From the IMG/VR virus record IMGVR_UViG_3300010885_072628: DNA of 10,909 bases; one strand, 5' to 3'. The notes under the pieces were generated by a model that did no database searches, was not told where the DNA came from, and was given only the letters and a program-made list of their open reading frames with translations. Numbering within the stretch: the first letter of the stretch is position 1; the number at the start of each line of letters is the position of its first letter. Source of the DNA: a virus. Lineage: Duplodnaviria > Heunggongvirae > Uroviricota > Caudoviricetes. Of the stretch, positions 836 through 10,909 are shown piece by piece. Made by a program: the position numbers and the translations under genes.

Positions 836-863
836 TCTGGGTAATTTTTAAATTTGGTCCGCC

Positions 864-880
864 AAAAAAATTGTACCCTA
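864..880 (+). promoter_or_regulatory. Conserved 17-bp element, copy 1 (AAAAAAATTGTACCCTA)
   Basis: Exact match to four other copies. Intergenic, 46 nt before the ATG at 927. The sequence is certain; the regulatory role is inferred. Confidence 0.7.
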
Positions 881-926
881 CCTTTACGTTGCGGCTAATT
901 TGTGCTATCCTCAGATCGGAGGAGAG

Positions 927-1169
927 ATGAACGATATTCGCAAGCAAGCAGAATTCGATAAAAAAAAGCAGGCACAGTTGCTTTGCGACATTACAGTAAA
1001 ATTGATCGCTGTTAAAGCTTCTATCAAAGACAAAGCTATTAGAAACAGCATCAGCGACATTGTTTTGATGATTAGCCTTTTTTGTGATACTGCTCCATTG
1101 AATCTTATCAACAACGATGTTGATACTGTGATGGAACATATGATTTCGTCTAATTTTACCGATGATTAG
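927..1169 (+). CDS. Hypothetical protein (80 aa, helical)
   Basis: Start moved from 900 to the in-frame ATG at 927, which follows a GGAGG SD (918-922). Confidence 0.7.
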   Translation: MNDIRKQAEFDKKKQAQLLCDITVKLIAVKASIKDKAIRNSISDIVLMISLFCDTAPLNLINNDVDTVMEHMISSNFTDD

Positions 1170-1194
1170 TTCTAACTTTTAGGAGAAGAAAATC

Positions 1195-1596
1195 ATGTCC
1201 AAGAGAATGCAAGAAAAAGTCAATATTCCAACTCATACTGTGATTAAATATCTGCGTGTAGGAGGAAATGGAGCTAATAAGCGAAAACCTCTGGGCGTTC
1301 TTGTCGCAGTAAAACTTCCAAATGGAGAGATTAGCGTTAATTATTCCTACTGTAATAGGAAAGATAGATTTGTTAAGAAGACGGCTCTTAATCTCGCCAT
1401 CGAAAGAGCTAAAGCAGAGGAAGTTTGCGACACCACTCCTTACAAGGTTGTGAAAGAGATCGAATCTTTCAGCAAGCGTATCGAGCGATATTATAAGAAG
1501 TCTGCAAAGCCTCCATATCTGCGTGTAAAGCCGTCAACTGTAGAAGATGGTCCGCAGAAAGAACCAGTCTTTGGACTTAATATAGATTTGATTTGA
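1195..1596 (+). CDS. Hypothetical phage protein (133 aa)
   Basis: AGGAG SD upstream. Contains YSYCNRKDRFVKKTALNLAIERA, resembling a C..kD.F.Kk.g..iA..RA motif I associate with uncharacterised phage proteins (unverified). Confidence 0.8.
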   Translation: MSKRMQEKVNIPTHTVIKYLRVGGNGANKRKPLGVLVAVKLPNGEISVNYSYCNRKDRFVKKTALNLAIERAKAEEVCDTTPYKVVKEIESFSKRIERYYKKSAKPPYLRVKPSTVEDGPQKEPVFGLNIDLI

Positions 1597-1632
1597 ACGA
1601 TTTGTCAAAAACAAAAAAGAAGGTATTGAAAA

Positions 1633-1827
1633 GTGAAAGTAAACGAAAGTTTTGAAGACTTTCCTTTATGGAAACTCAAACTCTCTGATTTAGAAGTTAA
1701 AGAGATAATCTGTAAACATCTACTGAAAGAGAATTACGAAGTTTCATCATCAGATATCAACATCTTTCCAATGACTAATTCGAAATATGAATTTGTAGTT
1801 CGACAGGCTAAAAAAATTGTACCCTAG
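1633..1827 (+). CDS. Hypothetical protein (64 aa)
   Basis: GTG start with AAGGT upstream. Fills the gap between two genes. Its last codons and TAG overlap element copy 2. Confidence 0.55.
   Translation: MKVNESFEDFPLWKLKLSDLEVKEIICKHLLKENYEVSSSDINIFPMTNSKYEFVVRQAKKIVP
1810..1826 (+). promoter_or_regulatory. Conserved 17-bp element, copy 2
   Basis: Exact match. Immediately followed by GAGG (SD), with the methyltransferase ATG 12 nt downstream. Confidence 0.7.
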
Positions 1828-1838
1828 AGGTTTGACTG

Positions 1839-2582
1839 ATGTCTACGAAGTATTTTATTTTAACAAAGCCTAAAAGTAGTGAAAAATCTGTTGCAGATGA
1901 TAGCGAAAATCAGATAATTAATCTAAACGATAGTAAGTTGAGTTATATTTTACCAGAAAATCTAATCACTTATTATTGTAAGAGAGGTCTTTTTGAATCT
2001 AATGTAATCGAGTGGTGCAAGAAATTTTGTAGCAAAGATAAGACCTTTGTAGATATTGGAGCACACACAGGAACATATACTCTATCACTAAGTGAGAAAA
2101 GTAAAAGCGTTGTTAGCTTTGAACCTCAGCAAATGACTTATTATGCTCTTTGCGGAAGTGTAGCTTTATCTAATTTGAAAAATGTAAAATGTTTTAATTT
2201 TGGCTTAGGTTCAGAAGAACAAGTCGGAATTAACGTTTTGAAGATCGTTAGCAATGATGGAGGCGGTTCTTCTCTTCACGAACAAGATGGAATGCCTGTT
2301 TTAAGAGAAGAAAAAATAAGAATCGAGACTCTTGATAGCCTTGGATTGAGTGACGTAGGCTTTATAAAGATGGATGTGGAAGATAATGAGTATTTTGTTT
2401 TGTTAGGAGCTAAAAAAACATTACAAAACAATTTTTTCCCTCCTATATTGTTCGAATGCAATAATGTCGAAAAAAATGCAAAACTATTTGATTACTTAAA
2501 AGAGTTGGCGTACAACGTGATTCAACTTGAGGCAGCAGATAACGGAGCAGCAAGCAATATGTATTTGGCAAAGCGAGGTTAA
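1839..2582 (+). CDS. FkbM-family SAM-dependent methyltransferase
   Basis: Motif I FVDIGAHTG, VVSFEP, and FIKMDVEDNEYFVLLGA (IKxDVEG-type) plus ILFE are the hallmarks of the FkbM/Methyltransf_21 family. Confidence 0.9.
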   Translation: MSTKYFILTKPKSSEKSVADDSENQIINLNDSKLSYILPENLITYYCKRGLFESNVIEWCKKFCSKDKTFVDIGAHTGTYTLSLSEKSKSVVSFEPQQMTYYALCGSVALSNLKNVKCFNFGLGSEEQVGINVLKIVSNDGGGSSLHEQDGMPVLREEKIRIETLDSLGLSDVGFIKMDVEDNEYFVLLGAKKTLQNNFFPPILFECNNVEKNAKLFDYLKELAYNVIQLEAADNGAASNMYLAKRG

Positions 2583-2604
2583 ACCTCAGACTAAAAAGTA
2601 TTTC

Positions 2605-2686
2605 GGTGGATTATTCAAGTGGTTAAAGAAGGCTGATTGTAAATCAGTCGCCCAAGGCTTCGTTGGTTCAAATCCAACATCCACCA
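2605..2686 (+). tRNA. trnY: tRNA-Tyr(GUA), bacterial type II, no encoded CCA
   Basis: Acceptor GGTGGAT/ATCCACC with discriminator A. Anticodon stem GCTGA/TCAGT, loop TT-GTA-AA (2639-2641). Long variable arm (GCC-CAA-GGC). T arm GTTGG-TTCAAAT-CCAAC. Confidence 0.95.
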
Positions 2687-2688
2687 AT

Positions 2689-2761
2689 GTGGCTATAGCT
2701 CAATTGGCAGAGCGGCAGATTGTGATTCTGTAGGTTGTGGGTTCAAGTCCCACTAGTCACC
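2689..2761 (+). tRNA. trnH: tRNA-His(GUG), no encoded G-1 or CCA
   Basis: Acceptor GTGGCTA/TAGTCAC with discriminator C. D stem GCTC/GAGC. Anticodon stem GCAGA/TCTGT, loop TT-GTG-AT (2722-2724). T arm GTGGG-TTCAAGT-CCCAC. Confidence 0.95.
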
Positions 2762-2783
2762 TAGAGGCGGGACGGGACGGGCT

Positions 2784-2800
2784 AAAAAAATTGTACCCTA
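2784..2800 (+). promoter_or_regulatory. Conserved 17-bp element, copy 3
   Basis: Exact match. Lies 22 nt after tRNA-His and 40 nt before the peptidase-vWA ATG. Followed by a GGTGC-GACAG-GCACC hairpin (2805-2819) and an AAGGAG SD. Confidence 0.7.
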
Positions 2801-2840
2801 GAATGGTGCGACAGGCACCTAGTAAAACAAGGAGAAGATA

Positions 2841-4295
2841 ATGGCTAAGACTAAAAAGAACACTAACGCTACTACAGCAGATGAATACCTGAATCGTGCA
2901 GGAGAGCTTCTCGGAGCTACTCCTGCTGGCACAGATTCAGATGGCAACTTGATTTTTGATAAGAAGCTAACTCAAGAAGAAGAAGAAGAAATCAAGAAGG
3001 TTTTCGAGGAAACTCTTAATTCTCTTGGAGTTACTTCGGAAGAACACAAATTGTTTAAGTCTGATATCGAAATGATTTGCTACAAGTATAGTCTTGAGTT
3101 TCCTTTCTGGGGAGTTCTCAGTGAGCGTTGCTCCTATAGTTTGACCAAGTTTCTTGTGCCAACTGCCGGAATTACCAAGGACGGAAACATTATTTTTAAT
3201 GTGGACTTCCTCCAGAGTCTTCGTGACAAGTATGGAAAGGTCTATCATAAAAAGTTGCTGTTTCTTGTTGCCCATGAAATTGCTCATTTTGCATTCGAAC
3301 ATGCAGAGCGTCAGGGCGAAAGAGATCAGATGCTCTTTAATGTCGCAGCAGATTTTGCAATCAATCTTCTGCTTCACTATCAGTTTTCGGGAAGTGCTGA
3401 TTACTGCATCGAAGGAGCATGCCTTGATACTAAGTATCATGATATGAGTGCAGAGCAAATCTATGAACTCATCAAAGATATGAAGAAGAAGAAGAAGCGC
3501 GATGGCGATGGCGATGGCGATGAAAATGGTGGAATCGGTGGTGACATGAAAGACATCTCGCCAGACGATCTGAAGAATAATTCCACATGTATTAGAGATC
3601 GTCGCATTCCTCTTCCAGATTTGCGTGGAAAAACTCCACAAGAAGCTCGTAAGATTTTGTCTGAATGGATCAACTCAGGTGCTCAAGAGGCTTTTGCTGT
3701 TGCTAAAGCACAAGGCAAGTTGCCTAATGATTTTGAACGGGCTATTAGCAAGCTGTTGCGTCCTCAAGTTGATTGGTTTAGAGCTTTTAAGCAAAAGATG
3801 AAGTTTGGAATTAGTCGAACAGAAAAGAGAGATACATGTTGGACACATCCAAATCGAAGATTTCTCGGTGCAGACTTTATTTTTCCAAGTAATATCGGCC
3901 CAGATTCACCTAAGATCGTTTATGCTATTGACACTTCTGGTTCAATGAGCGAAAATGACCTTTCACAGGCAATAAGCGAACTTGAGGATATTCGCAAGAA
4001 GTTTAATGCTAAGGTGTATTTTATGGATTGTGATGCTCAGGTTCATGGAAGTAGATGGATTCTTCCACATGAACCACTTCCTAAACTTGCTGGTGGTGGT
4101 GGAACTGATTTTATTCCTGTGTTTAATCATTTGATCGAAAAGCGTATTCGTCCTGACTATTGCTGTTTCTTTACAGATGGAGAAGGTAGCTTTCCTGATA
4201 CTAAGCCCCCTTTTGAAACTCTGTGGGTTATGACAGGAGATGTTAAGCCTCCATTTGGAGAAGTCATTAGAGTTAATGTTCCTTACGAGGGTTGA
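2841..4295 (+). CDS. Putative HExxH metallopeptidase + vWA (MIDAS) domain protein, DUF2201-like
   Basis: VAHEIAHFAFEH (HExxH) and FNVAADFAIN in the N-terminal half. The C-terminal vWA has MIDAS DTSGS, GGGTDF and FFTDG. A charged low-complexity linker lies between them. Confidence 0.9.
   Translation: MAKTKKNTNATTADEYLNRAGELLGATPAGTDSDGNLIFDKKLTQEEEEEIKKVFEETLNSLGVTSEEHKLFKSDIEMICYKYSLEFPFWGVLSERCSYSLTKFLVPTAGITKDGNIIFNVDFLQSLRDKYGKVYHKKLLFLVAHEIAHFAFEHAERQGERDQMLFNVAADFAINLLLHYQFSGSADYCIEGACLDTKYHDMSAEQIYELIKDMKKKKKRDGDGDGDENGGIGGDMKDISPDDLKNNSTCIRDRRIPLPDLRGKTPQEARKILSEWINSGAQEAFAVAKAQGKLPNDFERAISKLLRPQVDWFRAFKQKMKFGISRTEKRDTCWTHPNRRFLGADFIFPSNIGPDSPKIVYAIDTSGSMSENDLSQAISELEDIRKKFNAKVYFMDCDAQVHGSRWILPHEPLPKLAGGGGTDFIPVFNHLIEKRIRPDYCCFFTDGEGSFPDTKPPFETLWVMTGDVKPPFGEVIRVNVPYEG
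3483..3521 (+). repeat. In-frame microsatellites (AAG)5 and (GATGGC)3 encoding KKKKK-R-DGDGDGD
   Basis: Read directly. Lies in the linker between the peptidase and vWA domains. Confidence 0.85.
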
Positions 4296-4296
4296 A

Positions 4297-4590
4297 ATGG
4301 CTAAGAATAAAAAGAAGAAGCTAGAATCTAATCTCAACATAGATTCTACCTCTAAAACACAGTTAGAGCTTCTAAAGAAAAGATATGGCGATAGTTTGAA
4401 TGATGTAGATGTCACTTTGCCAATGACATATAATGAAGTTTTAAACTACTTCGGCAAACAGTGCGAAGAATTTAATCCTCAGTGCGGTTGCTGCCGCGCA
4501 TGGGTTCAATGGAACACCACAGGCCAAAAGGTTACTATTTCTTTAGATAGAGATGTAGTTTTAAAAGTTCTTAAAGAAGAAGGATATTAA
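4297..4590 (+). CDS. Hypothetical protein (97 aa) with Cys cluster
   Basis: Start moved from 4240 to the ATG at 4297, 1 nt after the upstream TGA, with a GAGG SD at 4287-4290. Contains CEEFNPQCGCCRAW. Confidence 0.75.
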   Translation: MAKNKKKKLESNLNIDSTSKTQLELLKKRYGDSLNDVDVTLPMTYNEVLNYFGKQCEEFNPQCGCCRAWVQWNTTGQKVTISLDRDVVLKVLKEEGY

Positions 4591-4592
4591 TA

Positions 4593-4769
4593 ATGAATCG
4601 TAAAGTTTTCTTGTTCGTAGTTTTTGCCATGCTTATTAGCGGAACTGTTTTGGCATCTAATAAAGTGTATAAATATCGTTGTCCGAAGTGTAAATTGGTT
4701 CAAGAATATGAAATTCAAGGAACAAAAAAGTGTCCTAACGATGGACGCATAATGATTAGGACTAATTGA
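4593..4769 (+). CDS. 58-aa putative exported zinc-ribbon/metal-binding miniprotein (not in the ORF track)
   Basis: MNRKVFLFVVFAMLISGTVLASNKVYKYRCPKCKLVQEYEIQGTKKCPNDGRIMIRTN*. Signal-peptide-like N-terminus, then CPKC...CPND. Fills the gap with 2-nt spacing to both neighbours. Confidence 0.8.
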   Translation: MNRKVFLFVVFAMLISGTVLASNKVYKYRCPKCKLVQEYEIQGTKKCPNDGRIMIRTN

Positions 4770-4771
4770 CT

Positions 4772-5176
4772 ATGAGTAAAACTATTACGTTGAGTGATTT
4801 GTACGAAAAAGCACTTTCTTCTGGATCTCGTCTTGAAGAAAAAGAAGAAAGAAAGATGTTGAAAGATGCCAAGTATGCGTATCTTTATGCGAAATATGTT
4901 CGTGGCGAGATTGCTAAGATGCCTAATAATGGGGCATGGGATTCTGAAGATTTAGATGTGTTCTTTGAAGATCATCCTAAATGGGCATTTCTCTATAGCG
5001 TTTTTGTAGAAAAAAATCAAAAGATTGTGAGATTTATGCTTGCAAACGCTATCAGTTCGAAATGCGTTGATAATGATGGCGGAGGTATTTTCCCAAATAA
5101 TATTGATTGGCCTAAAAGATTTTTCGATGAAGAAACAGGAGTGGATAAAATTAGGCAAGAGTTGGCCGGCCACTAA
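4772..5176 (+). CDS. Hypothetical protein (134 aa) with YLYA-type helical repeats
   Basis: Start moved from the TTG at 4766 to the ATG at 4772. DAKYAYLYAKYV and HPKWAFLYSVFV resemble the repeats of 191-568. Confidence 0.75.
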   Translation: MSKTITLSDLYEKALSSGSRLEEKEERKMLKDAKYAYLYAKYVRGEIAKMPNNGAWDSEDLDVFFEDHPKWAFLYSVFVEKNQKIVRFMLANAISSKCVDNDGGGIFPNNIDWPKRFFDEETGVDKIRQELAGH

Positions 5177-5195
5177 TTTTAAAATAGCGGCAGCT

Positions 5196-5212
5196 AAAAA
5201 AATTGTACCCTA
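5196..5212 (+). promoter_or_regulatory. Conserved 17-bp element, copy 4
   Basis: Exact match. Lies 19 nt after the upstream stop and 70 nt before the AAA+ ATPase ATG. Confidence 0.7.
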
Positions 5213-5282
5213 TAAGGGTGTCCCCAAGAGCGAGAACGAGTTTTTAACCTTAATTTTTTAGTTTGAAACAAAGGAGTTTTTA

Positions 5283-6371
5283 ATGTCTGAGAAGTTGCTT
5301 TCTACTGGTAATCTAATTACTGGCTCTCTTGCTAGTGAAATTCGTCGTTGCCGATCTGTTCAGACCAACAAGGGTCAGGGTCTGCCCATGATGATCTTTG
5401 GTAGTCCCGGCGTAGGCAAGAGCGAACAGGTTGTTCAAGCTCTTGATAAAGACAATGGTGATTTGCTGATCGATCTTCGACTCAACACCTTGGATAGTAT
5501 CGATATGCGAGGACTTCCTGTTATCAAGAAGGATAGCAATGGAAATCCTACACAGGTTGAATGGGTTCGACCAGAACATATTCCTGCTAATGGTCGTGGT
5601 ATCTTGTTTCTTGATGAAATCAATACCGCTCCACCTAGTGTTCAGAATCCTGCACTACAGTTGGTGTTGGATCGTAGAGTTGGCCCACATGAGTTGGGGA
5701 AGGATTGGTATATCGTTGCTGCTGGCAACAAGGCTGATGATCGGGCGCATATCCACCCTATCAGTTCCGCCCTTCGTCAGCGGTTTGCAATTTATCATTA
5801 CGAGCCGGACAAGGATACTTGGAGCAACTGGGCTGTGAGGAGTGGTGTTCATCCGAATGTTATCGGATTCATCAGCTTCAAGCCTGACAATCTGATTCAG
5901 GCTCCTATCGATGATGAGAGTGCTAATCCTTCTCCTCGTAGCTGGTACTATGTCTCTCAGAGGCTTCATGCCGATCAGTCGGAGCTTAGAGACATCTGTG
6001 CTGTTGTCGGAGCGGGCGCGGCAAGAGAGTTTATGGCTTACCAAAAGGTTTGCTCAAAGATTCCCGATATTGCCAAGCTGGTTGGTGGTAGGGAGACATT
6101 TACTGAGGATCGAAGTAATGTCACCATGAGCTATGCGGTTTCTAGTGCTCTCGGTGTTCATCTGTTGCGATCAAAGCACGTTGTTTCAGATGTGAACAAC
6201 TGCTTCAAGCATGCTATCAACAATATGGCTGGTGAGCCTAGCATGGTGTTCATCAGGTATTGTCTGCTGCAAGGCGATGAGAAGCTTAGGGCTACCATCG
6301 TTAGCTGCGAAGAGGGTAAGAAGTGGTTTGATAAGCACGGAGAACACCTCCAGAAGGCTATCAGCATGTGA
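5283..6371 (+). CDS. MoxR-like AAA+ ATPase (AAA_5 family), type commonly paired with DUF2201 peptidase-vWA proteins
   Basis: Walker A GSPGVGKS, Walker B ILFLDEIN, sensor-I AAGN, Arg finger SALRQRF, sensor-II-like SPRSW. AAGGAG SD. Confidence 0.92.
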   Translation: MSEKLLSTGNLITGSLASEIRRCRSVQTNKGQGLPMMIFGSPGVGKSEQVVQALDKDNGDLLIDLRLNTLDSIDMRGLPVIKKDSNGNPTQVEWVRPEHIPANGRGILFLDEINTAPPSVQNPALQLVLDRRVGPHELGKDWYIVAAGNKADDRAHIHPISSALRQRFAIYHYEPDKDTWSNWAVRSGVHPNVIGFISFKPDNLIQAPIDDESANPSPRSWYYVSQRLHADQSELRDICAVVGAGAAREFMAYQKVCSKIPDIAKLVGGRETFTEDRSNVTMSYAVSSALGVHLLRSKHVVSDVNNCFKHAINNMAGEPSMVFIRYCLLQGDEKLRATIVSCEEGKKWFDKHGEHLQKAISM

Positions 6372-6376
6372 TTTAG

Positions 6377-6422
6377 ACTGCTAACCCTCTATCAATAGGG
6401 ATGGAGGGTTAGCAGTTGTTTT
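6377..6422 (+). terminator. Putative rho-independent terminator
   Basis: 17-bp stem: 13 perfect bp ACTGCTAACCCTC/GAGGGTTAGCAGT plus 4 inner pairs including one G-U. 6-nt loop, TGTTTT tail, directly after the ATPase stop. Confidence 0.75.
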
Positions 6423-6444
6423 CATACAAACAAAAGGCAAACAA

Positions 6445-6771
6445 ATGATCTGGTACTTCTTATCGTTGGTCGGACAATTAACCATATTGGTATCTTTAAT
6501 TATTTTTTTCTCGATTGTTTCTTTTTGGGTTATAGGCAGCATGCTTGGGTTTTTTAACCTTCCGCACTACAGCAGCGATCTCTCATTTCCAGATCCTGAC
6601 GATATAGACGATGATCGGGCTATTATGATTCGGGAGGAAGCATGGGAGGATTTCCGATCTCAAAAACCTGTAGCTTATGCTAGAATCAATGAACGTGGCG
6701 ATTTGTATGATCTACGCAAGCAAAATAATCCTTATGTAGATCAAAAAACTGTTGTTCCGCTGTACCGCTAA
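6445..6771 (+). CDS. Hypothetical membrane-anchored protein (108 aa)
   Basis: Hydrophobic first ~37 aa, acidic linker, C-terminal KPVAY...VVPLYR. Confidence 0.65.
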   Translation: MIWYFLSLVGQLTILVSLIIFFSIVSFWVIGSMLGFFNLPHYSSDLSFPDPDDIDDDRAIMIREEAWEDFRSQKPVAYARINERGDLYDLRKQNNPYVDQKTVVPLYR

Positions 6772-6778
6772 AACCCGC

Positions 6779-6806
6779 TTGACGATTCTTTTTTTTGTGC
6801 TAAAAT
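6779..6806 (+). promoter_or_regulatory. Sigma70-type promoter (TTGACG-16 bp-TAAAAT, extended -10 TG)
   Basis: -35 TTGACG at 6779-6784, TG at 6798-6799, -10 TAAAAT at 6801-6806, 33 nt before the ATG at 6840. Confidence 0.7.
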
Positions 6807-6839
6807 CACAATATAACCCCAACTCCTACGGACTAAATC

Positions 6840-7718
6840 ATGCCAAAATTTTTCGAATCTGAGAAAAATCTTTTGAAAGTCGTGCCTCATTCTTCTATTT
6901 CTGCACAAGACTTGCTGGCTTTGAAAAATTTAGTTTCAAAAGACCCTGAGCATGTTCTCGATATGTTGCTGCTTTCAGGAAGCCTTTTTGAAGAAGTTAC
7001 AGGAAAGATTTCTGAAAACAAAGAACTATGTGGTGTTTATGATATACCCCACATGCGATTATCAACTAAAGCGTTCTATTTTCAGAACGCATTGGTTAAC
7101 ACTAACGAAATGAGTAGAATTCTCGAAGTTGATAGACATGGGGTTATAAATTTCGCTACGCTCCATAATCTCACAATGTTCACAAGTGGCAAATTTAGAG
7201 TTATTGTCAAAGATGGCAAATACTCTCAAGCAGTAAAGAATGAAATTGAAAATTCTGAATACAAGAAACAAGCACATTCTAGTTTGAAATTTATTGGTCG
7301 TGGACTTTTGTTGGAAATAGCCTGCGTCCTTATCAGAAGAAGCGTTAAAGAAGTGTTCACTTCCGAAGATCTTGAAAAAGTTCTTAGGTCTTACGGTAAG
7401 AATTTTGCATCCGCTTCTATTTCTGGTGCATGTGCAGAATTGTGCAAACCGGGCAAAGCTGTATTGCAGAAAATTAGTCGAGGAAAGTGGAAGCAAACTT
7501 TCTATTCTTCTTCTAATGTCTCTGTTGAACAAAAGCCAAGACAACAGCCGCAGCCCAGAAAAGTTTCTTTTGAAAGTCCTATTAAACCAGTCGAACAACC
7601 AAAAGCACCGCAGCAGAAAGATTTCAGTATTGATGCCATCATGAAGATTGTTGAGTCGAATCTTAGCGATTCAGCAAAAGAATATATCATTAACTCTATG
7701 AAAAGAAATTCTAATTAA
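6840..7718 (+). CDS. Hypothetical protein with putative HTH and winged-helix DNA-binding regions
   Basis: TNEMSRILEVDRHGVINFA is HTH-like. FTSEDLEKVL...SISGACAELCK...VLQKISRGKW fits a wHTH with a wing. P/Q-rich linker near the C-terminus. The ORF is certain; the function is inferred. Confidence 0.7.
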   Translation: MPKFFESEKNLLKVVPHSSISAQDLLALKNLVSKDPEHVLDMLLLSGSLFEEVTGKISENKELCGVYDIPHMRLSTKAFYFQNALVNTNEMSRILEVDRHGVINFATLHNLTMFTSGKFRVIVKDGKYSQAVKNEIENSEYKKQAHSSLKFIGRGLLLEIACVLIRRSVKEVFTSEDLEKVLRSYGKNFASASISGACAELCKPGKAVLQKISRGKWKQTFYSSSNVSVEQKPRQQPQPRKVSFESPIKPVEQPKAPQQKDFSIDAIMKIVESNLSDSAKEYIINSMKRNSN

Positions 7719-7723
7719 ACTAT

Positions 7724-7757
7724 TAATCCCTCCAGCATAAATATGCTAGGGGGATTA
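7724..7757. terminator. Stem-loop after the wHTH gene (possible terminator or RNA-stability hairpin)
   Basis: TAATCCCTCCAGCATA / TATGCTAGGGGGATTA inverted repeat with one mismatch and one G-U. No clear U tract. Confidence 0.45.
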
Positions 7758-7887
7758 TGGACGAACACCTATCGATAAAAGAATTATTTAGTTTCATCGG
7801 ATACAGCTTTTTGATCTTTCTAGCCATGTTGCCGGTACAACTTTTGTTTAAATACTTTTTTCTGTATCTTTTAAAAACATATTTCTA

Positions 7888-8115
7888 ATGTATGATTACA
7901 AAGAACTCTTCGACTACACGATTGAGTGTTTTAAAAAAATAGAAGCATACGAAATTCTTGGTAGAATTAAAGAAGATGTCAAGAATCTATCTTCGGATAA
8001 AGACAAACTACTTATATTGATTAATTTTCTCGCAGATCATTTAGACGAGAAAGAAACAAAGTTGCAGTCAGATTTGCTAAAACTTAGATCATCTATTTTG
8101 AATCAAGTTATCTAA
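7888..8115 (+). CDS. Hypothetical protein (75 aa, helical)
   Basis: Open frame with amphipathic helical composition. No clear SD. Confidence 0.55.
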   Translation: MYDYKELFDYTIECFKKIEAYEILGRIKEDVKNLSSDKDKLLILINFLADHLDEKETKLQSDLLKLRSSILNQVI

Positions 8116-8247
8116 CTTGTCGCCACGCCCTTAAATTTAAAAAATCATGCAGAACATCGTCAGGAACAAGGGCATGTTCAAGCCTTGAAAACGGATACTC
8201 CGTTCTTGCAACCATACGAAACAGCATTAGGAGTAGAAAACAAGAAC

Positions 8248-8598
8248 ATGAAAGTAGCAATTAATACGTGTTATGGCGGATTTAGTTTGTCAGATCTTGC
8301 GATTGAAAAGTTACTATCTATTAAGGGGATAGATTTTGAGAAACAGGAAAACGAACATCGTGACGCTTATTATTATAAAAAAGGTTTTCTTGGCAATAAC
8401 GAATACTATATCTCCAGATACGACTTCTGCGAAAATCGCTCAGATTCAGATCTGATTAGCGTGATTGAAGAAATGGGCGAAGCCGCAAATGGACCAACTG
8501 CAAAATTAAAAATTGTCGAAGTAGACTCTACTGACTGGCATATCGAGGAATACGATGGCGTTGAACATGTATCAGAAAATCACAGAACTTGGAGCTAA
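8248..8598 (+). CDS. Conserved hypothetical phage protein (116 aa)
   Basis: Start moved from the TTG at 8185 to the ATG at 8248 (AGGAG upstream, long spacing). INTCYGGFSLS...RSDSDLISVIEEMGEAANG...KLKIVE...IEEYDGVEHVSENHRTW matches a family I recognise from many tailed phages; function unknown. Confidence 0.8.
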   Translation: MKVAINTCYGGFSLSDLAIEKLLSIKGIDFEKQENEHRDAYYYKKGFLGNNEYYISRYDFCENRSDSDLISVIEEMGEAANGPTAKLKIVEVDSTDWHIEEYDGVEHVSENHRTWS

Positions 8599-8665
8599 TG
8601 CAAGCAAGTTTGTCTGTTTTTCATCTTGCTCACCAGCCAATCTTAAATTTTAAATTTGGGGCCGT

Positions 8666-8682
8666 AAAAAAATTGTACCCTA
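8666..8682 (+). promoter_or_regulatory. Conserved 17-bp element, copy 5
   Basis: Exact match. Lies 72 nt before the ATG of the second AAA+ ATPase. Confidence 0.7.
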
Positions 8683-8754: not shown

Positions 8755-9873
8755 ATGTCTCGGCCTAAAACTAAAGAAGCACTTTTGATTGAATCTGTTC
8801 TGTCAAGCGGCAACTTTGTTAATTATCGTATTTTCGCCAGTTCCGCTGAGTATCAGCAGTATAAGGCTCAAGAGAGCAAAGAAATCACAGAGATGTTTTT
8901 CAACAGCGTTAAGGTACGCTGGGTAAAAAATGGCGGTACTGTTTCTGGTTCTGCCGCTCCAACTGTTAGCACTGTAGAGAGCAAGCCAGAGTTCGCTTTC
9001 GAGCCATCAAAGTGGAGTTATTCTCCTGAAGCAACAGATATGATTCCTGTTATTGATAAGCACTTTGTTGTTGGCGATGACAACAAGGCTCTAATTGATC
9101 TGGTACAGAAGCGTAGTACGATTGGCAATGTCAACATTAGACTTGTTGGCCCTGCTGGCTGTGGCAAGACCAGCTTTGCTACCAACTACGCAGCTAATCG
9201 CAAGATGCCTGCTCTGATTATGGATTGTGCAAACGTGCGCGAACCTCGTGATTGGTTTGGTTATCGTAAATTCGATGCACAAACTAAGGAGATCGTTTGG
9301 CACGAAAGCATGTTCATTCGTATGATTGAAACTCCGGGCAGCGTTGTAGTGCTTGACGAATTGAATCGAGTTAGTCCTATGGTAATTAACACTTTGATTC
9401 CTTTGTTGGATCATCGTAGGGCTACTTACCTTGAGGAAGCCGGTCGCACTATTAAGTGTGCTGAAGGTGTTAGCTTCTGGGCTGCGATCAATGAGGGTAA
9501 TCAGTTCACAGGAACTATTCAGCTTGACGAAGCAATCAGTGATCGTTTCGGTCTTGTTGTTGAGTGTAAGTTTCTCGATGCAAAGACTGAGGGGAATGTT
9601 CTCAAAAGCAAGACGGGACTCAATATCGATGACTGCCGCAAACTTGTAGATGTTGCAAACCAAGTTCGTGCCAAGAGCCAAATGGATACTGCTGATGCCT
9701 TCAGCAAGCCCATTAGCACCCGTATGCTTGAAGAAGCTGCTACTGCTATGGTGATTGGTGGAACCAAGACTCTTTATTATACTCTGTTGAATCACTTTAG
9801 TGGTTCTGGTGGAGCTTCTAGCGAACGCCAAGGACTTCACAAGTTGCTGGTTGGTAAGTTTGGTACTATCTAA
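8755..9873 (+). CDS. CobS/CbbQ/NirQ-like MoxR AAA+ ATPase (AAA_5) with N-terminal extension
   Basis: Walker A GPAGCGKT, Walker B VVVLDELNR, AAINEG..FTGT..LDEAISDRF (sensor-I and Arg finger), ISTRML (sensor II). AAGGA SD. Confidence 0.92.
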   Translation: MSRPKTKEALLIESVLSSGNFVNYRIFASSAEYQQYKAQESKEITEMFFNSVKVRWVKNGGTVSGSAAPTVSTVESKPEFAFEPSKWSYSPEATDMIPVIDKHFVVGDDNKALIDLVQKRSTIGNVNIRLVGPAGCGKTSFATNYAANRKMPALIMDCANVREPRDWFGYRKFDAQTKEIVWHESMFIRMIETPGSVVVLDELNRVSPMVINTLIPLLDHRRATYLEEAGRTIKCAEGVSFWAAINEGNQFTGTIQLDEAISDRFGLVVECKFLDAKTEGNVLKSKTGLNIDDCRKLVDVANQVRAKSQMDTADAFSKPISTRMLEEAATAMVIGGTKTLYYTLLNHFSGSGGASSERQGLHKLLVGKFGTI

Positions 9874-9908: not shown

Positions 9909-10909
9909 ATGAAATCAGAATGGTTCAAAAAGTGGGAAGATGCTGAAGTCATCAAGGTTGATAAAAGCCAACCAGCTTTTCATGGCGATGGAGACGATGA
10001 TGATGAAGATGGTGAATATGTAAAACCTGGCGGATGGTGGGATAGGTTTCACAACAATAAGTCTTATACACCTGTAAAGAGTACAAGTGCATACCTCAGT
10101 TCTTCTTTCGACAGACATGATTCACGAACTTCGCAAGAAGATGATCTGTTGGAAGTCCTGAAGGAAATCAATAAGACTATCAACTTGACGCAAAACAGTA
10201 TGGATGGAGACGAAAAGAATATGGTTGTTCGTTTTAGTAACGGCAATCATGTTAATGATCTTTCTTCATCTGAGCTTTTTGTTTCGCCAAAAGTCATTAT
10301 GAACGGTCAGCGTATTCATTCAAAAAATAGCGATGAATACTTTGACGGGTTGGACGCTCTTAATGGCCAAGTCATGTTGTGCAGCTTTATGAGAAAAAGC
10401 GTACACAAAGTGGCCAGCAACCAATATGCCCTGAATATCAATTGGGCTATTCGTAATATTTACATGACGGATCTTCAAACTACTGCTGGTAACGAGATTC
10501 GCAAAGAATGGCCGGGATTTCAGTCATATATCGATCAGCAGCAAAAAGTATTTGCAATTAGCAAAGAAGCTGTCATTGACAGCTTTAATTCACCCGATCA
10601 AAATATTGATAATTTCATCAATATGATTTGCTATAACAGACTCAGCAAAGATCGTGTCGAATACCATGCTTTGTTTGAACAAGAAATTGCAGATCGTTTA
10701 ACTCTTGCTGATGAGGCTCTCAATAATACTCTAGATCAACCAATTGAAAACGTGTTGAGATTTAGAAGAGCAGAAGATGTCTACAAGAAGCTTCAAGAAA
10801 TTCTTGATCTTGAAACTCCACCGCCACCACCATGTTCAGACTCTAATTCAGACTCCGATTCAGACTCCGATTCAGACTCCGATTCAGACTCCGATTCAGA
10901 CTCCGATTC
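9909..10909 (+). CDS. 3'-truncated large protein (>333 aa), probable partner of the upstream ATPase; not in the ORF track
   Basis: Frame open from ATG 9909 (MKSEWFKKWEDAEVIKVDKSQPAFHGDGDDDDEDGEY...) to the window end, finishing ...ETPPPPPCSDSNSDSDSDSD. Starts 35 nt after the ATPase stop. Confidence 0.9.
   Translation, partial: MKSEWFKKWEDAEVIKVDKSQPAFHGDGDDDDEDGEYVKPGGWWDRFHNNKSYTPVKSTSAYLSSSFDRHDSRTSQEDDLLEVLKEINKTINLTQNSMDGDEKNMVVRFSNGNHVNDLSSSELFVSPKVIMNGQRIHSKNSDEYFDGLDALNGQVMLCSFMRKSVHKVASNQYALNINWAIRNIYMTDLQTTAGNEIRKEWPGFQSYIDQQQKVFAISKEAVIDSFNSPDQNIDNFINMICYNRLSKDRVEYHALFEQEIADRLTLADEALNNTLDQPIENVLRFRRAEDVYKKLQEILDLETPPPPPCSDSNSDSDSDSDSDSDSDSDSDSD
10836..10909 (+). repeat. 12-bp tandem repeat (TCAGACTCCGAT)n encoding Ser-Asp-Ser-Asp
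   Basis: One variant unit (TCAGACTCTAAT), then five perfect units (10848-10907) and a partial unit running off the window. Confidence 0.95.

Follow-up and report, generated by a model that had tools for sequence, protein, structure and literature searches.

The virus record IMGVR_UViG_3300010885_072628 contributes a stretch of 10,909 nucleotides (nt), referred to here as the window, in which the 17-mer AAAAAAATTGTACCCTA is repeated in five exact copies on the plus strand, starting at positions 864, 1810, 2784, 5196, and 8666. An earlier note on this DNA had described five identical same-strand copies, and all of them were recovered, against a chance expectation of 0.12 from shuffles; at least five copies were reached in 0 of 200 shuffled sequences. 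The note had also found no reverse-complement copy, and in our scan no further match to the 17-mer at up to three mismatches appeared on either strand of the window. The core nonamer of the repeat, TTGTACCCT, gave a single extra match in the window at up to one mismatch (10078–10086, minus strand), which is intragenic and chance-like. The motif is most likely the promoter signal of a small group of uncultured giant freshwater phages, an element of an ordinary kind. No published description of its sequence was found, and a literature search for the exact decamer TTGTACCCTA returned unrelated primer sequences only.

All plausible genes of the window and both of its tRNA genes are encoded on the plus strand. 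Copy 1 (864..880; core at 871–879) heads the genes 927–1169, 1195–1596, and 1633–1827; copy 2 (1810..1826) heads a gene for an FkbM-type methyltransferase (1839–2582), tRNA-Tyr (2605–2686), and tRNA-His (2689–2761); copy 3 (2784..2800), located 23 nt past tRNA-His, heads a metallopeptidase-vWA gene (DUF2201_N/DUF2201; 2841–4295), followed by the genes 4297–4590, 4593–4769, and 4772–5176; copy 4 (5196..5212) heads an AAA_5 ATPase (5283–6371), at the end of which lies a strong terminator hairpin of 18 pairs (6376–6417); copy 5 (8666..8682) heads a MoxR/CbbQ-like AAA ATPase (8755–9873) and a gene that begins at 9909. Counted from the end of the motif, the next start codon that has a Shine-Dalgarno site follows after 46, 12, 40, 70, and 72 nt at the five copies in order, close to the 12–72 nt claimed before, and the GC-rich block that had been seen in front of each copy is present (7–9 G+C in the 12 nt 5′ of each copy; window average 38.8%). 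That the copies sit just after the end of a gene or tRNA is correct except for copy 2, which overlaps the last codons of the open reading frame (ORF) 1633–1827, the final TA of the copy and the next G forming the stop codon of that ORF. The irregular spacing and the location of each copy directly upstream of a gene agree with the earlier exclusion of a CRISPR array.

A search with the peptidase-vWA protein led to a viral contig of 381 kb, G001 (70% amino-acid identity), which is about 79% complete and was analysed whole; a second contig of 146 kb is near-identical to it, with identical flanks and an identical sigma gene. At up to three mismatches the 17-mer occurs in G001 52 times in forward and 4 times in reverse orientation, as compared with 2 and 1 for a reversed-pattern control. 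The decamer TTGTACCCTA, the most over-represented 10-mer of G001, is found 71 times forward and 4 times in reverse, with 0.26 expected under a second-order background, and 68 of the 71 forward copies are packed into a block of short genes at 272.0–322.6 kb. No motif copy lies at 240–265 kb or 340–378 kb, the location of tail-like ORFs. Alignment of the second ATPase of the window added four metagenomic lineages (L157, 75% identical; L158, 61%; L159/L160, 58%; and the fragment L161); TTGTACCCT(A/T) is present in 1–13 copies in each of these four, on the coding strand only. Among cultured phages there were no near-identical matches to the window, and ATPase protein matches were at most 33% identical. 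A 14-mer scan of viral contigs gave mostly chance hits among the matches listed, several copies per contig being seen only in G001 and its 146-kb near-identical contig.

The position of the motif relative to genes is equally regular. Within the G001 cluster, a start codon that has a Shine-Dalgarno site lies no more than 80 nt away at 60 of the 68 copies (positions drawn at random from this block: mean 25.9, maximum 39), and over all 71 forward copies the median distance to the start is 35 nt, with an interquartile range of 32–40. The motif is found upstream of the peptidase-vWA orthologue in the window, G001, and L158; upstream of the first ATPase (AAA_5) in the window, G001, L157, and L158; and upstream of the second ATPase (MoxR/CbbQ-like) in all five lineages, G001, L157, L158, and L159 included. 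The intergenic DNA around these orthologue-linked copies is no longer alignable between lineages. Copies follow tRNA genes within 9–23 nt in G001 and in the window, and one copy in L157 ends 10 nt upstream of tRNA-Lys, so that the signal serves genes for RNA and genes for protein alike. Some copies in G001 directly follow a terminator hairpin with its T-run. The genes headed by the motif are short accessory genes, ATPases, and tRNAs.

The earlier note had proposed, as the first of two readings, a phage-specific promoter or operator. Its promoter half is well supported, because copy number, strict orientation, tight distance to starts and tRNAs, and conservation upstream of orthologues in five diverged lineages, each of them observed directly, all speak for it; the motif is very probably some kind of promoter. 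The same location in or near 5′ leaders could also point to a function at the RNA level, as a signal for processing or translation or as a structured leader, and some copies can pair ACCC with a downstream GGGT. The RNA folds of the five window leaders are, however, no better than those of shuffled sequences (z −0.73 to +1.18), and an Rfam scan of the window returned its two tRNAs only, with no match for the motif. A copy 10 nt before a tRNA gene does not suit such a function either, nor do the copies directly behind strong terminators, which upstream transcripts would not reach; a role in RNA is thus hardly credible.

To delimit the conserved unit, 107 copies were pooled across lineages with the nonamer TTGTACCCT as search key. 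The unit shared by the lineages is this nonamer, mostly followed by A, and not the 17-mer; in one-mismatch searches variants are located almost solely at the tenth base, which is A in 95 of the 107 copies and T or G in the other 12. The seven bases 5′ of the core are A/T-rich and variable (AAAATAA and the like in G001, different ones in other lineages). The run of seven A (A7) and the identity over 17 nt are specific to the lineage of the window and to a sample of five, so that the rigidity over 17 bp, which had been held to be a special property, does not stand: it reflects five copies of one lineage, and relatives keep only TTGTACCCT(A). Another consensus notation for this lineage-specific giant-phage promoter motif is AATTGTACCCTA.

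A sequence logo built from 76 copies shows information at positions −7 to +9 and 16–18 only (first T of the core = 0), and nothing is conserved upstream of −8. The absence of a conserved −35 block holds also over the 107 copies, and in the copy alignment there is no conserved −10-like hexamer 16–18 nt after TTGTAC, in line with the earlier remark that a sigma70 −10 is missing at the expected distance. A/T palindrome-like elements at −28/−27 accompany 15–22 of the 107 copies, as against 1.3–4.7% of random positions. Three window copies carry one, in each case starting 28 nt before the core: the palindrome-like AATTTTTAAATT (843..854) at copy 1, the perfect palindrome ATTTTAAAAT (5175..5184) at copy 4, and the palindrome-like AAATTTTAAATTT (8645..8657) at copy 5, the last being conserved upstream of the G001 orthologue; elsewhere most of them fall within the G001 segment matching the window. 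The centre of the palindrome is near −39 relative to the transcript start predicted below, and upstream elements and activators bind near −39. The palindrome was also considered as the −10 of a tandem host-type promoter and rejected; no workable −35 was seen by eye at the copy at 5196, and none came up in the promoter scan.

These features bear on a further explanation, in which the motif is the site of a phage regulator (an operator for a repressor, or an activator site resembling a MotA box), with the core promoter located elsewhere. Invariance fits sequence-specific protein binding, and the A/T palindrome that some copies carry at a constant offset suggests that extra factors may bind nearby. 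The motif itself is nevertheless asymmetric and not palindromic, it has no −10-like hexamer at a fixed distance downstream and no −35/−10 pair upstream, and sigma-70-like sites are enriched neither in the window (31 vs 27.9 expected) nor in the densest block of G001 (300–320 kb; 27 vs 31.5 expected). The asymmetry of the motif and the lack of a separate core promoter beside it make the operator half of the first reading unlikely in its pure form, and we consider a regulator site with a remote core promoter most improbable.

A transcript start can be predicted from the bases downstream of the promoter motif. On the numbering used above, 88% of the 107 copies have a pyrimidine at position 16 and 94% have a purine at position 17 (G 75, A 26); this pyrimidine-purine pair, 7 and 8 nt after the motif, holds within each lineage and is matched by C887/G888 at copy 1. 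Of 66 copies, only two have a Shine-Dalgarno site that begins less than 7 nt behind the motif; in five the site starts right at +7 or +8, positions +2 to +6 are used by none, and the tRNA of L157 starts at +11 after the motif. Since these three independent hints (the dinucleotide, the Shine-Dalgarno floor, and the L157 tRNA) agree, the start would lie at the purine 8 nt past the 17-mer, that is, at G888, G1834, G2808, G5220, and G8690 in the window, with predicted leaders of 39, 5, 33, 63, and 65 nt. On this prediction TACCCT would sit as a −10-like hexamer with an 8-nt discriminator, retaining the T, A, and final T of TATAAT. An alternative −10 hexamer, TA(n)AA(n) after CCC, which would make a TATAAATA-like box, is disfavoured: its A varies, and the start would fall past several Shine-Dalgarno sites.

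As to the polymerase that reads the motif, the check for sigma genes proposed in the earlier note was run in G001 and gave three genes of the sigma-70 family: one of 96 aa with region 2 only (162412–162702; L028:2412–2702), one of 292 aa with regions 2 and 4 (197511–198389), and one of 303 aa on the minus strand, likewise with regions 2 and 4 (330421–331332). Searches for Rpb2_6 and Rpb1_2 found no match in G001, both being positive in 14 of 14 control genomes. A sigma-based version of the promoter is favoured because no phage RNA polymerase was found in G001 and three sigma genes are present. The 303-aa sigma gene is preceded by TTGTCA-N16-TATAAT, a promoter that is kept at a homologue (84% identical) on a different contig; this sigma therefore looks like an early gene read by the host sigma. 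In the window, a near-consensus host-type promoter (6779–6806; TTGACG-N16-TAAAAT with TG) follows the terminator of the first ATPase, from which it appears that the host uses an ordinary consensus and that TTGTACCCT forms a separate class. The promoter at 6779–6806 heads a gene of 292 residues (6840–7718) with no family match and no G001 homologue, which may be specific to this lineage and have a host-type promoter to itself.

On the model of phiEco32 gp36, the 96-aa sigma is an attractive candidate for the reader. Its family members have 90–96 residues with region 2 only and are 51–99% identical in related phage contigs (homologues P0102–P0108), one member of 161 residues still has region 4, and the best solved relative is region 2 of FliA. 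For phage phiEco32, the lack of a −35 element has been attributed to a lack of homology to region 4 in its sigma factor gp36 (PMC8948821). In two of three relatives the homologue of the 96-aa sigma is located after an Amidoligase_2 gene, and in all three a protein of about 300 residues is encoded just downstream. These huge phages also encode a free-standing protein of 84–90 residues resembling the C-terminal domain of the RNA polymerase alpha subunit (alpha-CTD), often beside a ClpX-like gene (G001 169538–169705, L168; L166 3729–3992; L167 6940–7194; L169 17410–17673; L178 1540–1797). A bolder version of the promoter reading, in which the region-2-only sigma of 90–96 residues is the reader, the alpha-CTD-like protein docks at the −28 palindrome, and the roughly 70 copies double as cassette joints, is unlikely as a whole; if true, this sigma would be among the smallest promoter-specificity factors known.

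The rival to any sigma-based version is a promoter for a non-canonical RNA polymerase encoded by the phage itself, either packaged in the virion or made early. Several features would suit it: most sigma elements are shorter and less rigid than this core, the copies crowd into a stretch of short genes that look early, and G001, incomplete as it is, contains an open frame of 4404 residues (348024–361238), the first 3992 residues of which (the part scanned) match no Pfam or PHROG family. The case for it is nonetheless weakened by the missing Rpb2_6 and Rpb1_2 matches in G001; the three sigma genes and the free-standing alpha-CTD gene point to the host enzyme, and the pyrimidine-purine pair 8 nt downstream fits a geometry of the sigma type. 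We regard a phage polymerase as quite unlikely. The first reading of the earlier note thus keeps its promoter, and the phage polymerase that it had offered alongside a phage sigma factor was not found in G001.

The second reading of that note, a recombination or cassette boundary, can be judged from one clean case of gain or loss at the element in a related genome. In G001 the homologue of ORF 1633–1827 is followed by one motif copy and then by the peptidase-vWA gene; between these two genes the window has the copy at 1810, the methyltransferase, two tRNAs, and the copy at 2784. The cassette of methyltransferase, tRNA-Tyr, and tRNA-His (1806..2802, plus strand), absent from G001, is flanked by direct repeats of 23 identical bases (1806–1828 and 2780–2802), the longest shared by any pair of copies. 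Such repeats would be the expected trace of recombination between promoter copies, or of an insertion that duplicated one copy. The contig with the closest methyltransferase homologue (84%) has no motif; the gene therefore did not bring the promoter along.

Could the repeat be primarily such a boundary, comparable to the promoter stem-loop elements (PeSLs) of T4-type phages, with transcription secondary? Besides the methyltransferase-tRNA unit, the genes found between the conserved anchors vary greatly from lineage to lineage, as this would lead one to expect. That unit is nevertheless a single case; promoters stand here every 1–3 genes, too densely for a statistical test of breakpoint coincidence, and breakpoints near them are expected by chance. 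Start-codon distance, strict orientation, and retention upstream of orthologues are properties of promoters, the motif comes with neither a sigma-70-like promoter nor a regular stem-loop, and the cassette did not travel with the motif. A primary role as cassette boundary is accordingly very unlikely: the one insertion between copies stands, the likeness to a PeSL does not, and boundary formation is at most a side effect. Near-identical copies in the same orientation probably do act now and then as short homologies for cassette gain or loss.

Taken together, we favour, at a probability of about 0.6, a phage-specific class of single-element promoters read by host polymerase with a phage sigma factor, the start site, timing, and cassette side role described here being included in that estimate. 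The recognised unit would be the single element TTGTACCCT, mostly followed by A, behind 7–8 A/T-rich bases (A7 in the lineage of the window); some copies would add the A/T palindrome from 28 nt upstream, and there would be no −35 block. TACCCT would act as the −10-like hexamer, with TTG just upstream, and transcription would begin at the conserved purine 8 nt past the 17-mer. The reader would most likely be the host core RNA polymerase carrying a phage-encoded factor of the sigma-70 family. Because one sigma gene stands under a conserved host-type promoter, the units headed by the motif would be switched on after the first, host-sigma-driven genes. Copies probably serve occasionally as short homologies when cassettes are gained or lost. 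Start site, kind of polymerase, and timing are in all this deduced from sequence.

Several points weigh against this explanation. Look-ups for RNA sequencing runs containing this DNA listed none, and the start sites, and promoter activity itself, are predictions. At two copies (window 1810; G001 312915) the Shine-Dalgarno site abuts the motif and would be removed by the predicted start. Two of the three sigma factors have region 4, so that a −35 element might be expected, and none is seen. The inventory of sigma factors and polymerases comes from the relative G001, about 79% complete. No match to a T7-type polymerase (PF00940) was found in G001, in a search that was positive in no control genome and so cannot show absence, and the protein of 4404 residues could hide an enzyme. 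In contigs with homologues of the 303-aa sigma (42–84% identical) or of the 96-aa sigma (about 70%), no motif was found within 10 kb; this is uninformative, because in G001 the sigma genes also lie outside the cluster.

If the sigma-read promoter is accepted, the motif can be used to map transcription in a clade of giant, uncultured phages of freshwater, with about 70 units in G001 and five in the window, and predicts transcript starts to the base. It would separate a regulon (short accessory genes, two MoxR-type ATPase modules, peptidase-vWA, and tRNAs) from the genes under host-type promoters, and it is a cheap marker for fragments of this phage group in metagenomes. Three candidate sigma factors set against one element of 9 nt could show how huge phages without a polymerase of their own reprogramme the host enzyme.

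Some further observations were made on the motif and its surroundings. The reverse copies in G001 are located at 307984, 317029, 319988, and 321403, with partial ones near 319204, 319752, 321593, 322006, and 322543; over the final 15 kb of the promoter block, an inverted copy stands 13–21 nt ahead of several forward ones (TAGGGTACAA ... TTGTACCCTA). Divergent antisense promoters and a palindromic binding site are both candidates for these inverted copies. Just past the last promoter copy, at about 322700–322800, there are three direct repeats of about 23 nt (CGTTGCAAAATCCCGGTTACAAA-like), which mark where the plus-strand promoter block stops and minus-strand genes begin. Upstream of the second ATPase, L158 (9821 and 9942) and L159 (2690 and 2773) have paired promoter copies 83–121 nt apart with a conserved hairpin between them, which suggests a short structured RNA or a tandem-promoter leader. 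In the more distant phage L178 (sigma 51% identical), TTTTACCCTATAAA is located 8 nt after the TTGACA of a host-type promoter, TTGACA-N16-TATAAA (14330–14400); this arrangement may be chance or a hint of the origin of the motif.

A second strand-biased word of G001, ATACCACC (84 forward, 9 reverse), was examined as a further promoter class and rejected, as it belongs to a tandem repeat at the contig end (379–381 kb). The region concerned (379300–381443) is a long tandem repeat rich in ATACCACC, with periods of 15 and about 30 nt, running up to the contig end, and looks like repetitive coding sequence, not a regulatory motif. In the window, a 12-nt tandem repeat, GATTCAGACTCC (10846–10909), codes for Asp-Ser pairs in the gene from 9909, the G001 orthologue of which has 735 residues.

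Four known systems were compared with the motif. T7-type promoters are near-invariant single blocks of 17–23 nt that run up to the start. The motif resembles them as a near-invariant, single-block, strictly oriented intergenic repeat; it differs in that 9–10 nt and not 17–23 are invariant across lineages, in that the start-like dinucleotide lies 8 nt beyond the block and does not abut it, and in that G001 has no match to a T7-type polymerase, in the search without a working control. Late promoters of T4 (TATAAATA) are read by gp55 together with gp33 and the sliding clamp. They too consist of a single element in the −10 region without a −35 and depend on a small sigma-like protein, and G001-type phages keep a region-2 sigma of 90–96 residues. 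The sequence is different, however: the T and A at −12/−11 should be fixed, yet the A of CCCTA varies in 12 of 107 copies, and the bases after CCCTA are only loosely TAnAA(A/G). A T4-type start would moreover fall after several Shine-Dalgarno sites, and T4 late promoters head virion genes, whereas the motif heads accessory genes, ATPases, and tRNAs, with none near the tail-like ORFs of G001.

The PeSLs of T4-type phages are sigma-70-like early promoters joined to a terminator stem-loop (PMC2839356, PMC4122927). Shared with them are the many same-sense promoter copies in a hyperplastic region where many genes have no known function and at least one gene cassette bounded by two copies. The motif is not sigma-70-like, however, and a terminator hairpin precedes only 4 of the 32 copies at 300–320 kb of G001, no plus-strand terminator-like hairpin abutting any copy in the window; with both defining features failing, the sigma-70-like promoter and the regular stem-loop, the element is not a PeSL.

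In phiEco32, the middle and late promoters that gp36 reads consist of a single element, tAATGTAtA, with starts 6–8 bp downstream (PMC8948821). The sequence is unrelated to TTGTACCCT, and there are six copies there as against about 70 in the giant phage, where the class is known from sequence alone. The two systems are alike in having one conserved element of 9 nt, no −35, and a location upstream of phage genes only, and in a sigma-70-family protein encoded by the phage, which here, where the sigma genes are known from G001, would likewise be supplied to the host core polymerase. The start predicted here, 8 nt downstream, would fall within the range seen there. Promoters of the phiEco32 type are therefore favoured over T4 late promoters as the nearest analogue. 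The understanding of how phage promoters work is left unchanged by the motif: what is new is its sequence, and what is ordinary is its kind.

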